Positions 4,026 to 60,462 of a stretch of 64,000 nt of DNA are shown one piece after another; the first letter of the stretch is position 1; the number at the start of each line of letters is the position of its first letter. A program made the translations under genes and the position numbers. The stretch covers positions 81,964,001 through 82,028,000 of the forward strand of contig OZ024741.1 in the NCBI GenBank assembly GCA_964016885.1, written 5' to 3'. Below the pieces are notes generated by a model. The model was given only the letters and a program-made list of their open reading frames with translations, did not search any database and was not told the origin of the DNA. The DNA comes from Eledone cirrhosa (taxonomy: Eukaryota).

Positions 4026-4379
4026 TGAGTAATAACGATGATGAGAATGAGAATAATGATAATAATGAACATGGTAATGACAAAGACGACAATGGTGATG
4101 AGATTGATGATGATAATAATAATTGTTTCTACTTTAGGCACAAGATGATGATAATAATAATGATTTCATTTATTAGCCACAAGGGCAGACATGTAGGGGA
4201 CAATACAAAGACAGGGACAGTGGGGGTTTACAATAAGGTCGAGTAAAAGTGCACAATGGCAAGACTAATTTAACAATGAAAATATAAAAATATAAAATAA
4301 ACTATGCATAAATATAATAAAATAAATTCCCCGATAGGGGTGGACGACCTGGTGTGATTCGGGTACCCCACCAATCCCT

Positions 4380-6173
4380 GAAGACAAACTCCAGATACCG
4401 ATGGTCGACCCTATCGAATGCTTTCGATTGATCTAAATTGATCAGTGCCCCACCGAAGCCAGGTTTACACCCGACCCTCTCTATGATGTATCGCATGAGG
4501 TGGAGATTGTCGTGTATGGACCTGGCTGGGATTGCGCAAGTTTGTGCCTCCCCAACCAAATCCTCGACGACAAGCGCCAAACTCTTTGCTAACACCTTGG
4601 CCAAAATCTTAAACTCTGTGTTGAGCAGAGTTATGGGCCTGAAGTTGTCTAATGTATCCCTCTTGTTCTCGTCTTTCCTTATCAGCGTCACCACTCCCCT
4701 GCTCACAGAACTGGGAATACTCCCATTCTGCTGCCAGTTGCAGTAGAGTGCTTCGAGGAGTTCGGAGAACAAGTCTGGCATATTTACGTAAAGCTCGTAG
4801 GGCAGGCCACCAAACCGGGTGACTTGCGCCTCATGCAGCCGACAAGGGCGTACTGAATTTCGGCTGAAGTAATCGGCCTTTCGTAGCGCTCAGCGTCGAC
4901 CGTCGAGATGCGCGGCAAGCCGTCAAGGTAGGGACTGAAATCCGCTATTCTCTCTGACTCGCCACTCTCCCTGAACAACCGAACAAAGTGCTGGCGAAAG
5001 GCCTCACACATCCGCTTGGAATCGCTTATCTCGTGTCCGTCTCGGTCCGCCAAAGACCGAATTGTGGTTTTATTACCACGCTGCGCCTCCGCCAGGCGGG
5101 GGCCCATCGAACAGCTTTAGTTCCCTCGTTTCTCAGCGCACGCGCCTTAGCTCTGACAATGCAACCTTCGTGTTTGGCGTTGAAGAAATGGTCTATTGCC
5201 ATTCTCGCCGCTAGCACGTCAGTTACGATGCCACTACAAATAGCCTCGTCTAACTTATCTACCAGCCCCCCCTCCTTTCTATTTTTCTCTAACGCTAGTT
5301 CTTTGCTGAACTCTATCGAAGTTACTCTAATCTCTCTTTTGAGAGCCCCCCACCATCTGTTGTTGATGATCCCCCCTGTCAACTTTTGCTTAACTAAATT
5401 GTTGACTCGGTCCCTGTAAGCCTTACGTGCCGGAAATGACATGTTCAGCTTCCAGTAACCCGGTCCTAACCTACGCGTTTTATTTAGGTCGACCGTACAG
5501 ATCACAAATTTGTGATCTGAATAGGCGACCGTTTTAAAAAGTGGACAGCCCACACTATTTCTATCTATTTTCCTAATGAAGATCCTGTCTATATACGATC
5601 TAGATGACCCCATTCGGTTGGTCCATGTCCATACTGGCACATTGGGGAAATCTAGTCGATACCTGTCAGACAGTTGGAACTGGCTTAGTAGGTGCTTGAG
5701 GCTTTTGCACCCCCCGCTCCTATCAGCTACTCCCACACAATCCCATCGTGCGTCTAAGATGCCATTCCAGTCCCTCGCTAACAGTAAAGGGCGAGACGTA
5801 CCCAGAAAGGTCTCCAGGCGCCTAAAGAAGTCAGGTCGTAGACGGCCAGCAGTCTAAAGGCACCACCTTCGCTACTGCTCACATCCAAGACCACACACTT
5901 ACCGTCCGGGTCCCGGAAGATCGACCTTACCTCGAGATCCAGTCCTTTCCTAAACAGCACTGCCACCCCACCCCCCATTCCCGGCCTGCTAACAGGTGCG
6001 AAGATCTGATAGTCGTCGAAAATGGGGGATAGTGCACGCGTGTCGGAAATTCTGGTCTCGCTTACGGCAATCACATCCATTTCCAGCGACCGGAGGTCGT
6101 TGAGCAGGCGACCCTGCTTCCAGGGTGACTCCAGGCCACGAACATTTAAACTTCCTACTCTTAATATGGCCAT
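4380..6173 (-). pseudogene. Tx1-like ORF2 (APE endonuclease + N-terminal RT), frameshifted
   Basis: MAILRVGSLNVRGL, VSETR, SYIDRIF, SDHK, GPGYWKLN, NFRPITLLNTEFKILAKVLA, DQSKAFDRVDH spread over ORFs 5778-6173, 5026-5736, 4784-5107, 4302-4781. Confidence 0.9.
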
Positions 6174-9400: not shown

Positions 9401-10234
9401 CATATATACAAACATGCCATTTTCTGCTGTAATACTATTTTGTGCTTATATATTTAAATATTCGCCATCATATATCCCTGTCAGCTTTTAACGACAGATT
9501 TACTCATCATGCTACAAACTGCTGATTTCGCACACTAAATTCCCCTCCCCTTTTGCAAGGTCCAACATAACACATCCATTAACCCTTTTTAATAGGAAGT
9601 ATTTTCTTTTACTTTATTTCTTTTGTTTTTTAACCTCTTTCTTTGCTTATTTATTTATGTTTTAGTGTTGTTCCTTTTCATACTTTTATTCCGTTCTGCA
9701 ACACTAAAATAATGGGATCTGATTCGCTTTGCAGCAGGCTGCTATTCCAAAGCCATGTATTATTTAAATATACTATCAGTACACTACTTTATTTAAGTAA
9801 CATTATGCTGTACATATGAACGCTGCATCAGTTTCACGCTTACCTACCTATATAATCTACTTTCTTTCCATGCGTATTTTTTATGGTTGTTTATAGCTGG
9901 TAATCAGTTTAAATTTAAGTTCAGAATATGGCTGAGAAAATGTGTTCCAATCGTTAAACCAATGTGATGTTGTATCATCTCTCTATATGCTAAACAATAA
10001 AACGAGACATTATATAATATAGTTCTAAATATATTGTCTGAAAGAAAACATGATGTGCAAGGTGGCAACGTGTTTACTTACAGGTTTATTTAATAGAAAT
10101 TATCACCACGAGCAATTACAGGTGCAGTACTAAGCCCACATGGATAGAAATAGGATAAAAATAAGATAAAAATAGGACAAAAATAACAGTCTTCGTATTA
10201 TCTTACACACTGCCATCTTTAAAAAACATAGCAA

Positions 10235-11290
10235 GTCCCAGCATGAGTCTAAGATGCCATGCCAGTCCCCCGCTAACAGTAAAGGGCGAGACGTACCCAG
10301 AAAGGGTTCCAGGCGTCTAAAGAAGTCCGGCCGTCCTGCCCCGGAAGGGGCTTCGACGGCCACCAGTCTAAAGGCACCATCTTCGCTATTGTTCACGTCC
10401 AGGACCACCAACTTACCGTCAGGTTCCCAGAAGATCGACCTTACCTCGAGATCCAGGCTTTCCCTAAACAGCACTACCACTCCACCTCCTATTCCTGGCC
10501 GACTAACAGATGCGAAGATCTGATAGTCATCGAAAATGGGGGCTAGTGCGCATGTGTTGGAAATCCTGGTCTCACTGACGGCAATTACATCCATTTCTAG
10601 AGTCCTGAGTTCGTTGAGCAGGTGATCCTGCTTCCAGGTCGACCCCAGGCCTCGAAAATTTAAATTTCCAACTCTTAATATGGCCATGTTGGCAGTCTAA
10701 AAGAGAGAGGAGAGGTTTATTTATATCCCGGGCTCTTGTGAAGGTTTGCTTGTTCGACCTCCATAGTTGGTGGGGTTTCTTTTGGGAACCACTTTAAAAG
10801 TCTTGATGTGGGTTTTACGTTCTGGGTTCCCACATCCCGAGGAAAGCTGTCTCGAATCTTTTTGTAGAATCAAATCTTCCGGCACGCTAAATGTGCTCGA
10901 TTTAAAAATGTTCCCCTCTGTTTGTATTTCTTTACTTTGTGCTACGATAGCCATCAATTCCTTGTTGGCCCTTCTAACAAGCACGAAGTTTTGTATGTTT
11001 TGTTGGTGCGATTTTATTTGTTTGCGTGGTTGTGGTGGTGACGGTTCTGTTGGTATTGTTTCGGTTGTGTCTGTGTTTGTTGTGAGTGCGGTGTCTGTGG
11101 TTTCAGATGTTTCTGTGTGTATTTGTTCTTGCATCTGTTTAGATTGTTTGCGTTTGGGGGATTCTGGTGATAGTGATTGTGTTGATGTTGGTGTTGTTGG
11201 GGAGATGTTTTCGTGTGTGGTGTCTGCATCTTTTATTGTGGGTGTTTTTGTACTTTGTGGAGATTTGTCTTTGTGTGTTTTCTTTTTGTA
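10235..11290 (-). mobile_element. Second, diverged Tx1-like fragment (ORF1 C-terminus + APE N-terminus)
   Basis: MAILRVGNLNFRGL...VSETR...LLLAGDW closely parallels 5740-6800. Confidence 0.85.
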
Positions 11291-15073: not shown

Positions 15074-15940
15074 TACGAGGTGTGTCAGAAAAGATTTATT
15101 TCAAACCCAAACTTCACACTATGAGTTTTCTCCTTCAAAGTCATCCCCCTGGAGTATGTAACTGTAATCTTAGCTCTCTGCAGCGATCAAACTTTTTTCT
15201 TCATAATGTTATATACATGTCCTCTGTTTCAGGTCGTCAAGCAATGAGCACAGAGCAACGAACAAACTTGAAAACTCCGTCAGAAGCACTGGGATTGCTA
15301 CAGTAAATGTATGGAGATGAGACGATGTCACGCTCACGTGTTTTTTAGTGGTGCAAGAGATTTAAAGAAGGACGCGAGGACGTGGAAGATGATCCCAGCA
15401 ACGGAAGGCCCTCAACAACCAGGACTGAGGTCAACGTTGAGCGCGTCAGGCAGATGGTGCGTTACGATCGTCGGCTGACTGTTCGACTGATGGCAAATGA
15501 GCTGGGCATGGATCGGGACAGCGTCTGGAAGATTCTCGCTGAAGATTTGGACATTCGGAAAATCTGTGCAAAGATAGTGCCAAAACTGCTGAACGATGAC
15601 CAGAAGGGTCGACGCATGCAAATGTGCCAGGACATCCTCAAGCGTCTTGAAACCGAACCAGACTTGCTAGGGACAGTCATCACCGGTGATGAGTCATGGA
15701 TCTTCGAGTACGACCCGGAGCGAACTCGTTTTGAAGACGAGGACGACATCATAAAGGCCGTGACGACGGAATTGCGGAAGACGACGGAACTTCCGGAAGA
15801 ATCCTTCCAGGAGTGTATGCAAGCGTGGTAGAAAAGGATGGAAAAGTGCATTAGACTCCAAGGGAAAACTCTTAGTGTGAAGTTTGGGTTTGAAATAAAT
15901 CTTTTGTGACATCAATCCTGGAAGTTTTCCGATCCACCTC

Positions 15941-27863: not shown

Positions 27864-28980
27864 ATTAGAATTGGTGCTCTGAAATAGCGATATATATATG
27901 AATGTATATATAGTGTATTTTGCAATACACTGTATGCTTAATTAAAAGCATTTCGAAGACCTTACGCTATTGTTTTAGAATAGTGACAGTCTCCCTTACT
28001 TTAATTTTCAGCAAACAGGGGAGATAAAGCTGACGGAGCTCTGTTTCGCACTTTTTGGTGCTTATCAAAGCTAACTACTCCTCCTGTTTGCTGAAAATCA
28101 TGAATGTTTGATTCTTATAGAATTCTAGTAATAATCAGGAACTGGTTATACAGAGCGGTTGGCGGTCAAGCAGAAATTGAAAATTAGAATTGGTGCTCTG
28201 AAATAGCGATATATATATATGAATGTATTTATAGTGTATTTTGCAATACACTGTATGCTTAATTAAAAGCATTTCAAAGAACCTTACGCTATTGTTTTAG
28301 AGTAGTGACAGTCTCACTTACTTTAATTTTCAGCAAACAGGGGAGATAAAGCTGACAGAGCTCTGTATAATCAGTTCCTGATTATTACTTGAATTCTATA
28401 AGAATCAAACATTCATGATTTTCAGCAAACAGGAGGAGTAGTTAGCTTTGATAAGCACCAAAAAGTGCGAATCAGAGCTCTGTCAGCCTTATCTCCCCTG
28501 TTTGCTGAAAATTAAAGTAAGAAAGACTGTCACTATTCTGTTTGCTGAAAATTAAAGTAAGTGAGACTGTCACTACTCTAAAACAATAGCGTAAGGTCTT
28601 CGAAATGCTTTTAATTAAGCATACAGTGTATTGCAAAATACACTATATATACATTAATATATATACCGCTATTTCAGAGCACCAATTCTAATTTTCAATT
28701 TCTGCTTGACCGGCAACCGCTCTGTATAATCAGTTCCTGATTATTACTAGAATTCTAAAAAAATTAAACATTCATGATTTTCAGCAAACAGGAGGAGTAG
28801 TTAGCTTTGATAAGTACCATAAAGTGCGAAACAGAGCTCTGTCAGCTTTATCTCCCCTGTTTGCTGAAAATTAAATTAAGTGAGACTGTCACTACTCTAA
28901 AACAATAGCGTAAGGTCTTCGAAATGCTTTTAATTAAGCATACAGTGTATTGCAAAATACACTATATATACATTCATATA
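27864..28980. mobile_element. Retrozyme-like inverted tandem array, about 319-bp monomer, with U3-A8 hammerheads
   Basis: About 1.6 units minus then about 1.8 units plus; HHR agct TTGATAA gtac cataaa gtgc GAAA cagagctctg TC agct at 28803-28847, further copies 28444-28488 (+) and 28028-28072 (-). Confidence 0.85.
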
Positions 28981-29186
28981 TATATATATATATATATATA
29001 TAACCTTACACACTTAAATATAAATGCATGTATATATACAAATGTATAAATGAATAGCTATATACATACGTAAATGTATATATGTATATGTGTATGTATG
29101 TATGTAGATTTATATATATATATGTATGGATGTAGATTTATATATATATATATGTAGATTTATATATATATATATATATATATATT

Positions 29187-29610
29187 TAGTTTCTGAATTT
29201 GTTTAGCAAGATTCTTTATCTAAAAACGTGTGTTGAAACCGATATTGTGGTTGTACTTTGGGAGAGTTATGTTGGCAATAAGAAACACACGCACCATGCT
29301 TTCACTCCAATTTCTTATAAATTTATAAATTTAAGAAATTTGTTAATTTCCGGTTGTTTGGTTGGTTCCACAACCGGACGGTTGTTCATATATTGGCAAA
29401 GTTCTTTCATCACACATTCTGTGACCTCTTCAGTGACTGGGGATTCTATATATGACAATATATGAACAACAATCCGGCTGTGGAACCAACTAACCAACCG
29501 GAAATTTACAAATTCCTTAAATTTATAAATTTAATTTATAATTGGAGTGAAAACAACTGGTGCGTGTGTTCCTTATTGGCAATATGACCCTCCAAAAGTA
29601 TAACAATATA
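29187..29610. mobile_element. PLE pLTR-like fold-back element with HHR (same family as 56125-56702)
   Basis: Inverted arms; minus strand gtca CTGAAGA g gtcac agaatgt gtgat GAAA gaac TT tgcc at about 29394-29437. Confidence 0.7.
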
Positions 29611-49799: not shown

Positions 49800-50195
49800 G
49801 TAAAAATAAGAATAAAAATAAAAATAAAAATAAAAATAAAAATAAAAATAAAAATAAAAATAAAAATAAAAATAAAAATAAAAATAAAAATAAAAATAAA
49901 AATAAAAATAAAAATAAAAATAAAAATAAAAATAAAAATAAAAATAAAAAAAAAATAAAAAAAAAAATAAAAATAAAAATAAAAATAAAAATAAAAATAA
50001 AAATAATAAAAATAAAAATAAAAATAAAAATAAAAAAAATAAAAAAAAAATAAAAATAAAATTAAAAATAAAAATAAAAATAAAAATAAAAATAAAAATA
50101 AAAATAAAAATAAAAATAAAAATAAAAATAAAAATAAAAATAAAAATAAAAATAAAAATAAAAATAAAAATAAAAATAAAAATAAAAATAAAAAA

Positions 50196-50226
<31 letters not shown>

Positions 50227-50382
50227 TAAAAATTAAAATTAAAATTAAAATTAAAATTAAAATAAAAATAAAAAATAAAAATAAAAAAAATAAAAATAAA
50301 AATAAAAATAAAAATAAAAATAAAAATAAATATAAAAATAAAAATAAAAATAAAAATAAAAATAAAAATAAAAATAATTAAA

Positions 50383-50413
<31 letters not shown>

Positions 50414-50637
50414 TAAAAATAAAAATAAAAATAAAAATAAAAATAAAAATAAAAATAAAAATAAAAATAAAAATAAAAATAAAAATAAAAATAAAAATAA
50501 AATTAAAAATAAAAATAAAAATAAAAATAAAAATAAAAATAAAAATAAAAATAAAAATAAAAATAAAAATAAAAATAAAAATAAAAATAAAAATAAAAAT
50601 AAAAATAAAAATAAAAATAAAAATAAAAATAAAAATG
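49800..50637 (+). repeat. (AAAAAT)n tract inside pLTR; mirrored by (TTTTTA)n at about 52455-52922
   Basis: Direct reading; about 840 vs about 470 bp. Confidence 0.97.
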
Positions 50638-50704
50638 AAATTAATAATAAGGTTAAAAATGAAAGTAAATCAGAAAAGGTAGTCTTAAAGAGAATAATAA
50701 GAGC

Positions 50705-52013: not shown

Positions 52014-53546
52014 CCACCAGTGAACGATATGTTGGTATGACGCAAGACAAATTCAAAACGCGTTATTACTCACATGTCGCATCCTTTCGACATCCAGAAA
52101 AAAGATTTACAACAGCTCTGGCTAGCAGAATATGGGATTTGAAAGAGCAAGGTATCCAATATAAATTGGATTGGTCAATTTTGAACCAATCTAAAGAATA
52201 TGCAAGAGGAACAAGATAATGCACGCTCTGTATAAATGAAAAATATTGGATTTTGCAAAACCTTAAATCACCAAAGACCTGCCTAAACACAAAGACAGAA
52301 ATTTTCACCAGTTGCCCACACATGAAATCACAACTGCTTTCCAGCTCATATAAACTTAACACACTTTCAGATACTTATCCTCCATAAGCTCTTATTATTC
52401 TCTTTAAGACTACCTTTTCTGATTTACTTTCATTTTTAACCTTATTATTAATTTCATTTTTATTTTTATTTTTATTTTTATTTTTTTTAATTTCTATTTT
52501 TATTTTTATTTTTATTTTTATTTTTATTTTTATTTTTATTTTTATTTTTATTTTTATTTTTATTTTTATTTTTATTTTTATTTTTATTTTTATTTTTATT
52601 TTTATTTTTATTTTTATTTTTATTTTTATTTTTATTTTTATTTTTATTTTTATTTTTATTTTTATTTTTATTTTTATTTTTATTTTTATTTTTATTTTTT
52701 ATTTTTATTTTTATTTTTATTTTTATTTTTATTTTTATTTTTATTTTTATTTTTATTTTTATTTTTATTTTTATTTTTATTTTTATTTTTATTTTTATTT
52801 TTATTTTTATTTTTATTTTTATTTTTATTTTTATTTTTATTTTTATTTTTATTTTTATTTTTATTTTTATTTTTATTTTTATTTTTATTTTTATTTTTAT
52901 TTTTATTTTTATTTTTATTTTTACTTCACATCCACCACTAACCCCGCCCCTTTATTCTCTGATTCACTTACCTAATATCTTCACTTTCCACTTTTTACTT
53001 CTCCATTTTCTTCACGACCTCATTACGGAAGTCACTTGCGTTTTCCACTCTAGATATTTTCTGTTATTTCGCAGCCATTCTTATATTTTTTTATATTTGT
53101 ACTCACTTATTCACAAGGCCGTTTTTACACCCTATATCTATGTGTCTGAGCGTCTTTATGTGTGTATACTTTCTGTATATGTACACGTACGCCTCCGTAT
53201 GTGCGCGCGCGTGCGTGTGTATATATATATGTGCATGTGTGTGTTTTTTATATCTGTGTTTTTACATCTATTTTTTTACATTCTTATTTTTATGTGTGCG
53301 CATGTAAGCGGGTCAACGTGCGTGAGTGTATGTATGTGTGTGTGTGTGTACGTACTGAATGTATGGATGAGTAAGTGTGCGTATGTATATATGTATGTAT
53401 ATATTAATGTGTGTGTATGTGTGTGTGAGTATACAGTCGCGTACGTACGCGTGATTAGATATACATGGGGCGAGGTGTATGTATGTATATGTGTGCATCC
53501 TGTGTGTGTATGTATACTTACATACGCTTTTGTCTGCACGTTTTGC

Positions 53547-56124: not shown

Positions 56125-56702
56125 TCGTTTCTGAATTTGTTTAGCAGGATTCTTTATCTGAAAACGTGTGTTGAAACCGATATTGTTATACTTTGTGAGG
56201 GTCATGTTGCCAATAAGAAACACACGCACCAGTAGCTTTCACTCCAATTTATAGAAAACATGAATGGAATAGCAACATCACAACTTTCAATTAAGGACAA
56301 AATGAAAACACACACACATAGAACAAACAACCAACCAGTAACATGTAAATAAACAAATAAATAAACAAATAAAAACACACACACAGACACTCGGATGTAA
56401 CACATGCGCAAACTAAGCACACAACACACACAAAAACAAGATGGCGTAGGATAGAACAAAAGAGAGGCACAAAACAAAGAAAAGAATCCCCAGTCAGTGA
56501 AGAGGTCACAGAATGTGTGACGCAAGACCTTTGACAATATATGAACAACCGTTCGGTTGTGGAACCAAACAACCAACCGGAAATCATTTTTTTTTTTTTA
56601 AATTAAAAACAAAAATGTTTTTAATTTATAATAAATTGGAGTGAAAGCACTGGTGCGTGTGTTTCTTATTGGCAGCATGACCCTCCAAAAGTATAACAAT
56701 AT
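56125..56702. mobile_element. PLE pLTR-like fold-back element (family of 29187-29610), HHR core mutated
   Basis: Shared terminus tttctgaatttgtttagca.gattctttatct; gtca GTGAAGA g gtcac..gtgac GCAA gacc TT tgac at about 56493-56535. Confidence 0.7.
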
Positions 56703-56785: not shown

Positions 56786-56787
<2 letters not shown>

Positions 56788-59700
56788 TGGAATAAATGCT
56801 CTGAAATAGCGATATATATGTGAATATAGACATAGAATATTCGAAAATATTCTGTATGTTTATAATAAACATTTTGAAGACCTAATCGCTATAGAATAGA
56901 ATACGTCACGTATTACAATTAGATTCTCGATAAAAGCAAGGGAAGTAATCTACGCGTTTCATTCTCGTTAGAAATCATCAGGACTACATATCCAGTGCTT
57001 TTATCGAGAATGACACAGCTAGAGACTTATAGAATACTTAGCTGTGTACAGGAACTGGTTTGAAAGAGCGGTTGCCGGTCCGGCAGAAATTAGAAATTGG
57101 AATAAATGCTCTGAAATAGCGATATATATGTGAATATAGACATAGAATATTCGAAAATATTCTGTATGTTTATAATAAACATTTTGAAGACCTAATCGCT
57201 ATAGAATAGAATACGTCACGTATTACAATTAGATTCTCGATAAAAGCAAGGGAAGTAATCTACGCGTTTCATTCTCGTTAGAAATCATCAGGACTACATA
57301 TCCAGTGCTTTTATCGAGAATGACACAGCTAGAGACTTATAGAATACTTAGCTGTGTACAGGAACTGGTTTGAAAGAGCGGTTGCCGGTCCGGCAGAAAT
57401 TAGAAATTGGAATAAATGCTCTGAAATAGCGATATATATGTGAATATAGACATAGAATATTCGAAAATATTCTGTATGTTTATAATAAACATTTTGAAGA
57501 CCTAATCGCTATAGAATAGAATATTCTTGCTTTTATCGAGAATCTAATTGTAATACGTGACGTATTCTATTCTATAGCGATTAGGTCTTCAAAATGTTTA
57601 TTATAAACATACAGAATATTTTCGAATATTCTATGTCTATATTCACATATATATCGCTATTTCAGAGCATTTATTCCAATTTCTAATTTCTGCCGGACCG
57701 GCAACCGCTCTTTCAAACCAGTTCCTGTACACAGCTAAGTATTCTATAAGTCTCTAGCTGTGTCATTCTCGATAAAAGCACTGGATATGTAGTCCTGATG
57801 ATTTCTAACGAGAATGAAACGCGTAGATTACTTCCCTTGCTTTTATCGAGAATCTAATTGTAATACGTGACGTATTCTATTCTATAGCGATTAGGTCTTC
57901 AAAATGTTTATTATAAACATACAGAATATTTTCGAATATTCTATGTCTATATTCACATATATATCGCTATTTCAGAGCATTTATTCCAATTTCTAATTTC
58001 TGCCGGACCGGCAACCGCTCTTTCAAACCAGTTCCTGTACACAGCTAAGTATTCTATAAGTCTCTAGCTGTGTCATTCTCGATAAAAGCACTGGATATGT
58101 AGTCCTGATGATTTCTAACGAGAATGAAACGCGTAGATTACTTCCCTTGCTTTTATCGAGAATCTAATTGTAATACGTGACGTATTCTATTCTATAGCGA
58201 TTAGGTCTTCAAAATGTTTATTATAAACATACAGAATATTTTCGAATATTCTATGTCTATATTCACATATATATCGCTATTTCAGAGCATTTATTCCAAT
58301 TTCTAATTTCTGCCGGACCGGCAACCGCTCTTTCAAACCAGTTCCTGTACACAGCTAAGTATTCTATAAGTCTCTAGCTGTGTCATTCTCGATAAAAGCA
58401 CTGGATATGTAGTCCTGATGATTTCTAACGAGAATGAAACGCGTAGATTACTTCCCTTGCTTTTATCGAGAATCTAATTGTAATACGTGACGTATTCTAT
58501 TCTATAGCGATTAGGTCTTCAAAATGTTTATTATAAACATACAGAATATTTTCGAATATTCTATGTCTATATTCACATATATATCGCTATTTCAGAGCAT
58601 TTATTCCAATTTCTAATTTCTGCCGGACCGGCAACCGCTCTTTCAAACCAGTTCCTGTACACAGCTAAGTATTCTATAAGTCTCTAGCTGTGTCATTCTC
58701 GATAAAAGCACTGGATATGTAGTCCTGATGATTTCTAACGAGAATGAAACGCGTAGATTACTTCCCTTGCTTTTATCGAGAATCTAATTGTAATACGTGA
58801 CGTATTCTATTCTATAGCGATTAGGTCTTCAAAATGTTTATTATAAACATACAGAATATTTTCGAATATTCTATGTCTATATTCACATATATATCGCTAT
58901 TTCAGAGCATTTATTCCAATTTCTAATTTCTGCCGGACCGGCAACCGCTCTTTCAAACCAGTTCCTGTACACAGCTAAGTATTCTATAAGTCTCTAGCTG
59001 TGTCATTCTCGATAAAAGCACTGGATATGTAGTCCTGATGATTTCTAACGAGAATGAAACGCGTAGATTACTTCCCTTGCTTTTATCGAGAATCTAATTG
59101 TAATACGTGACGTATTCTATTCTATAGCGATTAGGTCTTCAAAATGTTTATTATAAACATACAGAATATTTTCGAATATTCTATGTCTATATTCACATAT
59201 ATATCGCTATTTCAGAGCATTTATTCCAATTTCTAATTTCTGCCGGACCGGCAACCGCTCTTTCAAACCAGTTCCTGTACACAGCTAAGTATTCTATAAG
59301 TCTCTAGCTGTGTCATTCTCGATAAAAGCACTGGATATGTAGTCCTGATGATTTCTAACGAGAATGAAACGCGTAGATTACTTCCCTTGCTTTTATCGAG
59401 AATCTAATACGTGACGTATTCTATTCTATAGCGATTAGGTCTTCAAAATGTTTATTATAAACATACAGAATATTTTCGAATATTCTATGTCTATATTCAC
59501 ATATATATCGCTATTTCAGAGCATTTATTCCAATTTCTAATTTCTGCCGGACCGGCAACCGCTCTTTCAAACCAGTTCCTGTACACAGCTAAGTATTCTA
59601 TAAGTCTCTAGCTGTGTCATTCTCGATAAAAGCACTGGATATGTAGTCCTGATGATTTCTAACGAGAATGAAACGCGTAGATTACTTCCCTTGCTTTTAT

Positions 59701-60437
59701 CGAGAATCTAATTGTAATACGTGACGTATTCTATTCTATAGCGATTAGGTCTTCAAAATGTTTATTATAAACATACAGAATATTTTCGAATATTCTATGT
59801 CTATATTCACATATATATCGCTATTTCAGAGCATTTATTCCAATTTCTAATTTCTGCCGGACCGGCAACCGCTCTTTCAAACCAGTTCCTGTACACAGCT
59901 AAGTATTCTATAAGTCTCTAGCTGTGTCATTCTCGATAAAAGCACTGGATATGTAGTCCTGATGATTTCTAACGAGAATGAAACGCGTAGATTACTTCCC
60001 TTGCTTTTATCGAGAATCTAATTGTAATACGTGACGTATTCTATTCTATAGCGATTAGGTCTTCAAAATGTTTATTATAAACATACAGAATATTTTCGAA
60101 TATTCTATGTCTATATTCACATATATATCGCTATTTCAGAGCATTTATTCCAATTTCTAATTTCTGCCGGACCGGCAACCGCTCTTTCAAACCAGTTCCT
60201 GTACACAGCTAAGTATTCTATAAGTCTCTAGCTGTGTCATTCTCGATAAAAGCACTGGATATGTAGTCCTGATGATTTCTAACGAGAATGAAACGCGTAG
60301 ATTACTTCCCTTGCTTTTATCGAGAATCTAATTGTAATACGTGACGTATTCTATTCTATAGCGATTAGGTCTTCAAAATGTTTATTATAAACATACAGAA
60401 TATTTTCGAATATTCTATGTCTATATTCACATATATA
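56786..60437. mobile_element. Retrozyme-like satellite: 310-bp monomer, about 2.4 units minus + about 9.4 units plus, one hammerhead per full unit
   Basis: CTGATGA at 57795, 58105, 58415, 58725, 59035, 59345, 59649, 59959, 60269 (+) and 56975-56981, 57285-57291 (-); one 6-bp deletion near 59408; flanked by (TA)n. Confidence 0.92.
57789..57831 (+). ncRNA. Minimal type I hammerhead (representative copy of the 310-bp unit)
   Basis: gtagtc CTGATGA t ttct aacg agaa t GAAA cgcg TA gattac; predicted cleavage after GUA at 57825. Confidence 0.88.
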
Positions 60438-60462
60438 TATATATATATATGTGTGTATGTAA

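Follow-up and report, generated by a model that had tools for sequence, protein, structure and literature searches.

Metazoan non-LTR retrozymes are the described elements closest to those analyzed here. They are reported to be low-GC, non-coding tandem units of ~300 nt, each with one type I hammerhead and a short palindromic helix III, and Penelope-type elements (PLEs) have been proposed as their mobilising partner (PMC7229834; bioRxiv 10.64898/2026.07.22.740005). The second system of interest is that of the Neptune-type, endonuclease-bearing PLEs. Their insertions are described as having an inverted truncated copy, a 30-40-nt tail on one end, and a bias towards (TA)n (PMC8557442, Craig et al. 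2021). According to an in vitro study (PMC11167929, Frangieh et al. 2024), a purified PLE protein cuts and extends both DNA strands, and copying by its reverse transcriptase (RT) begins at two sites within the RNA, which flank the tail and one of which lies in an AC-rich stem-loop. The same report indicates that ~55 nt of RNA beyond the start site are needed, that ribozyme cleavage is dispensable for insertion in vitro, and that the start site is non-homologous to the target; its text does not mention retrozymes.

We analyzed a stretch of 64,000 nt of the genome of Eledone cirrhosa, hereafter the window, and identified two insertions of this general type. The insertion of family A (319-bp unit) spans positions 27864-28984 and that of family B (310-bp unit) positions 56786-60438, and both are made of two back-to-back arms bounded by (TA)n runs (Table 1). 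A previous reading of the sequence alone had placed both monomers in the range 28620-28975. That range corresponds to part of the right arm of family A and holds the 319-bp unit only. The A and B units are homologous along their full length (BLAST E 4e-29; ~64-69% identity), and their sizes and lack of coding capacity fit the range of non-LTR retrozymes, roughly 150-400 nt. No long ORF covers the unit at 28667-28984, and the ORF and domain searches identified no RT plus GIY-YIG ORF at either the A locus or the B array. Judged from their sequences, A and B represent sister subfamilies within a single hammerhead element without coding capacity, of the non-LTR retrozyme kind.

Table 1. Features of the family A and family B insertions, in coordinates of the window.
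Feature	Position	Strand	Remarks
Left inverted arm of A, ~1.6 units	27864..28366	-	3' end at tail end (+26), against (TA)n
Type I hammerhead of A left arm, U3-A8 core	28028..28072	-	predicted cut after 28032
Right arm of A, ~2 units	28360..28984	+	3' end at site 0, into (TA)n
First hammerhead of A right arm, position 15.1 A to U	28444..28488	+	likely inactive, from the hammerhead consensus
Local 40-nt tandem duplication	28498..28579	+	lengthens its A unit to 359 nt
Helix P, 5' strand	28586..28591; second copy 28905-28910	+	complementary to first 6 nt of tail (28667-28672)
Hairpin Y, 6 bp, A	28605..28622; second copy 28924-28941	+	one compensatory pair
Hairpin Z, 8 bp, 4-nt loop, A	28625..28644; second copy 28944-28963	+	two compensatory pairs, one G-U
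Hairpin V, small, AU-rich, holds site 0	28645..28666	+	likely first RT start site (putative role)
Block first half, Penelope-type tail, A	28667..28692	+	terminates at the second fixed insertion end (+26)
Block second half, A	28697..28739	+	downstream of both fixed ends; carries 3' strand of helix Q (pairs with tail)
Helix I extension, 5' arm, A	28777..28792	+	both bases changed in 10 of 15 counted pairs
Intact type I hammerhead of A, U3-A8, 4-bp helix II, palindromic helix III	28803..28847	+	predicted cut after 28843 (GUC)
Helix I extension, 3' arm, A	28856..28871	+	pairs with 28777-28792
Left arm of B array, 2.4 units	56786..57523	-	3' end at tail end
Right arm of B array, 9.4 units, 9 hammerhead motifs	57526..60438	+	3' end at site 0, into (TA)n
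Helix I extension, B	57765-57780 with 57838-57853	+	
First B hammerhead, C3-G8, U.U at helix II base, 6-nt palindromic helix III	57789..57831	+	predicted cut after 57825 (GUA)
Hairpin Y, B	57904-57920	+	
Hairpin Z, B	57923-57942	+	
B tail and remaining block	tail 57965-57990; block 57965..58037	+	

Other repeats were found in the window. Positions 29190-29610 and 56600-56700 hold another two-armed (TA)n element, whose minimal hammerhead motif has its core on the minus strand at 29433 and whose family also flanks several of the loci that we fetched (L129, L162). Long arrays of a 6-nt tandem repeat, A-rich and then T-rich, occupy 49801-50669 and 52423-52923 and are roughly inverted around 1.7 kb of other sequence. 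Finally, fragments at 4302-4889, 10130-10696, and 15349-15831 match the Pfam profiles RVT_1, Exo_endo_phos (LINE-like), and HTH_32 (transposase-like).

Each unit carries one type I hammerhead motif, with its core, helices I to III, and an NUH site, as identified from sequence patterns and covariation. At the gathering score Rfam reports no hammerhead in the window, and gives a weak match to HH9 for the intact motif at 28803-28847 (16.2 bits against a gathering score of 52). In B the core pair is the usual C3-G8, helix II has a U.U at its base, and helix III is a 6-nt palindrome. The U.U is also described in the axolotl retrozyme HHR_Amex2 (PMC7229834), and subfamily F (see below) has a C.A pair in this place. 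The core of A has U3-A8 and a 12-nt palindromic helix III. The same compensatory core change was reported in Schistosoma PLE hammerheads (PMC4209133, Cervera and de la Peña 2014), where it occurs in minimal PLE-borne motifs, whereas here it is found in retrozyme units with full helix III and has arisen or reverted three or more times. At the A locus, damage to the plus arm consists of the 40-nt duplication and the alteration of its first core at position 15.1. With its altered core and its intact core spaced 359 nt from each other in this arm, the A copy is probably unable to release a monomer. In contrast, the right arm of the B array has nine intact motifs consecutively. Li, Clavereau and Pollet (2026, bioRxiv 10.64898/2026.07.22.740005) regard a copy as active when it has at least two consecutive intact hammerheads, which is the case of the B array and not of the A locus.

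The units share a primary-sequence block, already noticed in the sequence-only reading, which lies at 28667-28739 in A and starts at 57965 in B. Its first half, which we call the tail, is identical at 22 of 26 nt between A and B. In the second half 35 of 41 columns are identical, against 97 of 170 in the rest of the unit. Searching the genome (3.0 Gb) with sequence patterns, we counted 17,517 exact matches to the second half of the block and 21,315 to the tail, with B-type tails numbering 19,149 and with no match for either control. The element is thus dispersed and in many copies, as are non-LTR retrozymes. Searches seeded by divergent copies revealed seven subfamilies, A to G, whose majority sequences are 65-91% identical to each other and which are 92-99% identical within. 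All of them keep the tail and most of the block, in which F has a 12-nt insertion. A more distant family, H (323 nt; 30 loci fetched, with 11 full units), was reached via weak profile matches (E 0.012-0.029). Judged by eye, its parts follow the same order, i.e., a hammerhead with palindromic helix III, a long helix I extension, helix P, hairpins, tail, and helix Q, and its insertions have two ends in (TA)n. Hairpin Y is missing from H as fetched and is present in a related copy (L248). Common descent of H with A to G is probable. The presence of the block in other members of the family, which the sequence-only reading had made a condition for its proposal, therefore has two answers: the block is found in seven subfamilies, and is absent as a sequence from family H and from the PLE ends that we examined.

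These searches also returned other hammerhead-bearing repeats. A non-coding family (L120:7790-8010, L129:3200-3330, L116) has a hammerhead helix II nearly equal to that of family B, with ends and a ~60-nt tail unrelated to B, which suggests an exchange of ribozyme modules between lineages. A tandem repeat of ~490-510 nt with a hammerhead-like core (L121:8154-9727, L247:2051-2139) is likely another retrozyme family.

The ends of the insertions are fixed. Among 203 arms from 118 loci of A, B, C, and E, 180 end in two windows that cover 9% of the unit: 99 of them at site 0, which immediately precedes the block, and 81 within the block, at about +26. Most of these ends (143 of 180) adjoin (TA)n. 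We found 77 two-armed insertions, and both ends could be classed in 56 of them; 52 of the 56 have one site 0 end and one tail end, which is the PLE-type footprint of an inverted 5'-truncated arm with a tail on one end only. The exact place of site 0 comes from subfamily C, where the sequences listed have a G in 6 of 6 read-through copies and in none of 9 terminal copies, which carry the A of the target. This places site 0 in the loop of hairpin V and gives a tail of ~35 nt, against 26 nt when counted from the start of the block, in line with the 30-40 nt of PLE tails. The likeness to Neptune-type PLEs (PMC8557442, PMC11167929) thus extends to the inverted truncated arm, the one-end tail, the (TA)n targets, the hammerhead near the end, and two fixed ends that correspond to the two reported RT start sites, the first in a small stem-loop. 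Unlike these PLEs, the elements here have no ORF, carry a full three-helix hammerhead with a 15-20-bp extension, and form arrays of up to 14 or more identical units. Their site 0 also lies in a UA-rich stretch resembling the target, unlike the start site described in PMC11167929.

The position of the block at the fixed insertion ends makes it the likely place where a Penelope-type enzyme starts copying. Counted from its own start it covers 73 nt, 47 of them beyond +26, which places its second half where the binding region of a PLE would be expected, and by analogy this half is likely a protein-binding region. The earlier suggestion of an RT/endonuclease recognition element thus agrees with the location of the block, whose first 26 nt lie between the two fixed ends, and we infer the binding itself. 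Two helices link this region to its surroundings: helix P joins the start of the tail to a strand upstream, and helix Q joins the tail to the second half of the block. The pairing probability of P is 0.96-0.99 in C, 0.5-0.6 in B, and 0 in the copy of A that was folded, and that of Q is 0.5-0.9 in A, B, and C; the reference for E had a mutated tail and was uninformative. These two helices and hairpin V were defined from majority sequences, folds, and listings judged by eye. Taken together, we consider it probable that these are sister retrozyme subfamilies whose stems are kept by compensation, and that their block, at the fixed ends, is the start and binding region for a borrowed Penelope-type RT.

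The best surviving alternative, which we find unlikely, is that of the same element with a block that is mainly an internal promoter or transcription start derived from the 5' end of a PLE, its place at the insertion ends being a by-product. A promoter had also been proposed in the sequence-only reading. In the full-length PLE L111 the tail is followed by an ATG after 27 nt, which gives the second half of the block the position expected of a 5' UTR, and PMC8557442 mentions that the Penelope 5' UTR has an internal promoter. The block is moreover better conserved in sequence than the rest of the unit, as given above, and shows no covariation among A to G. However, neither strand of A, B, C, and E contains an exact Pol III B box or, even with one mismatch, an A box, on which ground a Pol III SINE was also rejected. 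Family H provides the second argument. The block is considered gone from H as a sequence because pairwise comparison with A, B, C, and E gives scores in the range of shuffles, yet helix P folds with a probability of 0.99-1.0, closing the 8-bp hairpin and hairpin V, and helix Q with 0.76-0.94. By eye, three of the six Q pairs and one P pair differ from A to G on both sides. The loss of the sequence with the apparent conservation of its helices favours a structural signal over a promoter, which thus lacks support in our data. An internal Pol II promoter in the block is still conceivable, and the roles of promoter and start region can coexist.

If the block is a start region for a Penelope-type RT, the nature of the template has to be considered. 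Most arms (152 of 180) run 5' past the predicted cut site, and 6 start within 5 nt of it, as by chance; the loci are mostly best matches, a choice that favours long arms, and in a less biased set 48 of 58 run past the cut. Since the 5' ends of arms do not pile up at the cut, a cleaved linear monomer was rejected as the usual template. Within the B arrays, 62 of 64 units are identical to the type that prevails in their array, counting the two arms together, and nine arrays hold seven unit types. The copying of one RNA monomer many times, as a circle, accounts best for this uniformity, and related animal retrozymes are reported to accumulate as circles (PMC7229834). Closed 310-nt contigs were found in two of four sequencing runs of unknown kind, and, as tandem DNA is expected to give them too, they carry no weight here.

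Uncut multimeric transcripts of the genomic arrays could also be the template, the ribozyme being kept for another use, e.g., the release of transcripts. Arms that cross the cut site and uniform arrays suit multimers as well, and unprocessed RNA was the dominant substrate in vitro in the data described in PMC11167929. Multimers from many source arrays would leave arrays like those made from circles, but seven unit types in nine arrays, common to both arms, would require many homogeneous sources. The repeated compensation in the catalytic core (see below) points to selection on cleavage within the copying cycle. With the circles reported for related elements, this leads us to regard uncut multimers as improbable, slightly more so than the promoter, and to favour a circular monomer copied from a start region in the block.

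The sequence-only reading had described a conserved structured RNA, with a long perfect stem extending helix I and two hairpins at equivalent positions. The extension has 16 bp and is perfect in both A and B. The 8-bp hairpin Z (agaatatt/aatattct versus agtgtatt/aatacact type) was likewise found in both units. The 6-bp hairpin Y is present in both and is the weakest element: it has a single compensatory pair and is missing from the RNAalifold consensus and from the lowest-energy fold of B. We rejected the class of the tetraloop as a conserved feature, since subfamilies C, F, and G carry other 4-nt loops, and a further hairpin (X) is not kept in B, where three of its five pairs are broken in the 42-row alignment described below. 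The z-scores of the circular folds are -7.8 (A) and -4.7 (B), and those of the reverse strands are -5.2 and -4.4, so that the energy of folding alone does not fix the strand. The occurrence of five G-U and no A-C pairs among the subfamily majorities points to that of the hammerhead.

Covariation was judged by counting pairs, and nhmmer profiles were used in place of a covariance model. The three stems named have 29 pairs, of which 11 are different in A and B, each of these being a Watson-Crick pair in both (null mean 1.35; none of 200,000 randomizations reaches this count). This test has some circularity, as A and B had served to select the stems. Out of this sample, 7 of 9 changed pairs are compensatory between A and C (P 5e-6), 6 of 9 between E and C, and 2 of 3 between A and E (P 5e-4). 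We then aligned 42 of the 126 extracted units, taking the most central ones per subfamily and two singletons. In this alignment 95.4% of the cells are paired, against 37-47% in slid controls, cells that count related sequences and not independent events. Changes on both sides affect 23 of 47 pairs, a result reached in none of 500 shuffles and in none of the slid controls, and a measure of pair types falls below its shuffles. Helix I with its extension, helix II, and hairpin Z also emerge from RNAalifold when no structure is supplied. The proposal of a structured RNA therefore holds in a larger alignment and in subfamilies beyond the original pair.

Among 240 rows, the core pair 3-8 is U-A in 98, C-G in 96, and C-U in one, with 45 unparsed, and neither C-A nor U-G occurs. 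On a tree of 142 rows (one per locus, sufficiently long, and with a parsed core), C-G and U-A replaced each other a minimum of three times, whether or not the core columns were included, and selection on the ribozyme is the simplest reading of these switches. Template switching of DNA or cDNA that re-copies one arm of an inverted repeat could produce paired changes with no selection on RNA structure, as in both units the stems named above form perfect inverted repeats and elements often fold back at inversion points, but this is very improbable, because pair 3-8 sits outside any inverted repeat and switched repeatedly without mixed states, and because G-U pairs and U.U mismatches that arm-to-arm copying would erase persist in subfamily majorities.

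Retrozyme subfamilies kept by RNA-level compensation and started at their block would move as follows. Arrays would be transcribed and cut by their hammerheads, probably as dimers via the palindromic helix III, and the monomers ligated into circles, with the long helix I extension holding the ends together. A PLE protein would bind a module made of helix P, hairpins Z and V, the tail, and helix Q, and nick both strands of a (TA)n target. One strand would prime copying at site 0 and the other at +26, around the circle or along an uncut multimer, which would give two inverted arms of identical units with the tail on one only. Structure would be kept while sequence drifts because only the variants that keep the ribozyme and the module spread. 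A bolder possibility, which we put forward tentatively and hold to be less likely than not to be right in full, is that this ~110-nt module (P closing Z and V, the tail, and Q) serves Penelope-type RTs as a portable start signal encoded in structure, one that survives complete turnover of its sequence, as in H, places both start sites, and permits rolling-circle target-primed reverse transcription of ribozyme-made circles from both strands.

We searched the genome for an autonomous partner. There are 10,598 GIY-YIG candidates, of which 150 were scored, and the 70 PLE loci (L081-L130, L233-L252; 69 distinct) make up ~7 families, most with a Neptune-type cysteine linker as judged by eye. Two of them look near full length (L111, with a 938-aa frame, and L113, with a 1096-aa frame), and several families have two ends in (TA)n and U3-A8 hammerhead motifs. 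We failed to identify a PLE sharing the block in these 70 loci by BLAST, by local alignment against shuffles, or by nhmmer: local scores of the PLE ends against the block are within those of shuffles, and nhmmer returned separate retrozyme insertions only, the next best match having an E-value of 0.76. By comparison, Li et al. report a link to PLE termini in 24 of 57 Xenopus families. The PLE tails of four families share a short motif absent from the retrozyme tail. A screen with variant-tail and variant-block patterns turned up subfamilies F and G and family H, and none of the loci inspected (12 of 12 variant-tail and 30 of 64 variant-block) runs into a PLE frame. Retrozyme copies lie in (TA)n at or beside PLE ends (L082, L139, L248), as a shared target preference predicts.

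On the basis of its organization, we would classify the element as an animal non-LTR retrozyme with a PLE insertion footprint, for which cleavage, circles, and protein binding are expected. It differs from the metazoan retrozymes described so far (PMC7229834; bioRxiv 10.64898/2026.07.22.740005) in that seven subfamilies and a distant one give covariation for the monomer fold, that C3-G8 and U3-A8 alternate within one lineage, and that a two-armed footprint with a tail is present. What is new here is the covariation across subfamilies, the repeated switch in the core, and the case for the block as a structural start region and not a promoter; a literature search outside subscription journals, repeat databases, and preprint supplements found no paper on covariation across subfamilies in retrozymes or on this family.

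These results bear on two questions, the way in which animal retrozymes move and the features that a PLE RT recognizes in its RNA. The mobilization of retrozymes by PLEs has so far been proposed from co-occurrence and terminal similarity, and the in vitro study of PLEs maps start sites, but no conserved fold (PMC11167929). The lineage described here offers a fold backed by covariation, compensation in the core, and a short and defined region of RNA with natural variants. If the module is indeed a start signal encoded in structure, the series of subfamilies would be a natural mutagenesis map of the choice of internal start sites by a telomerase-related RT.
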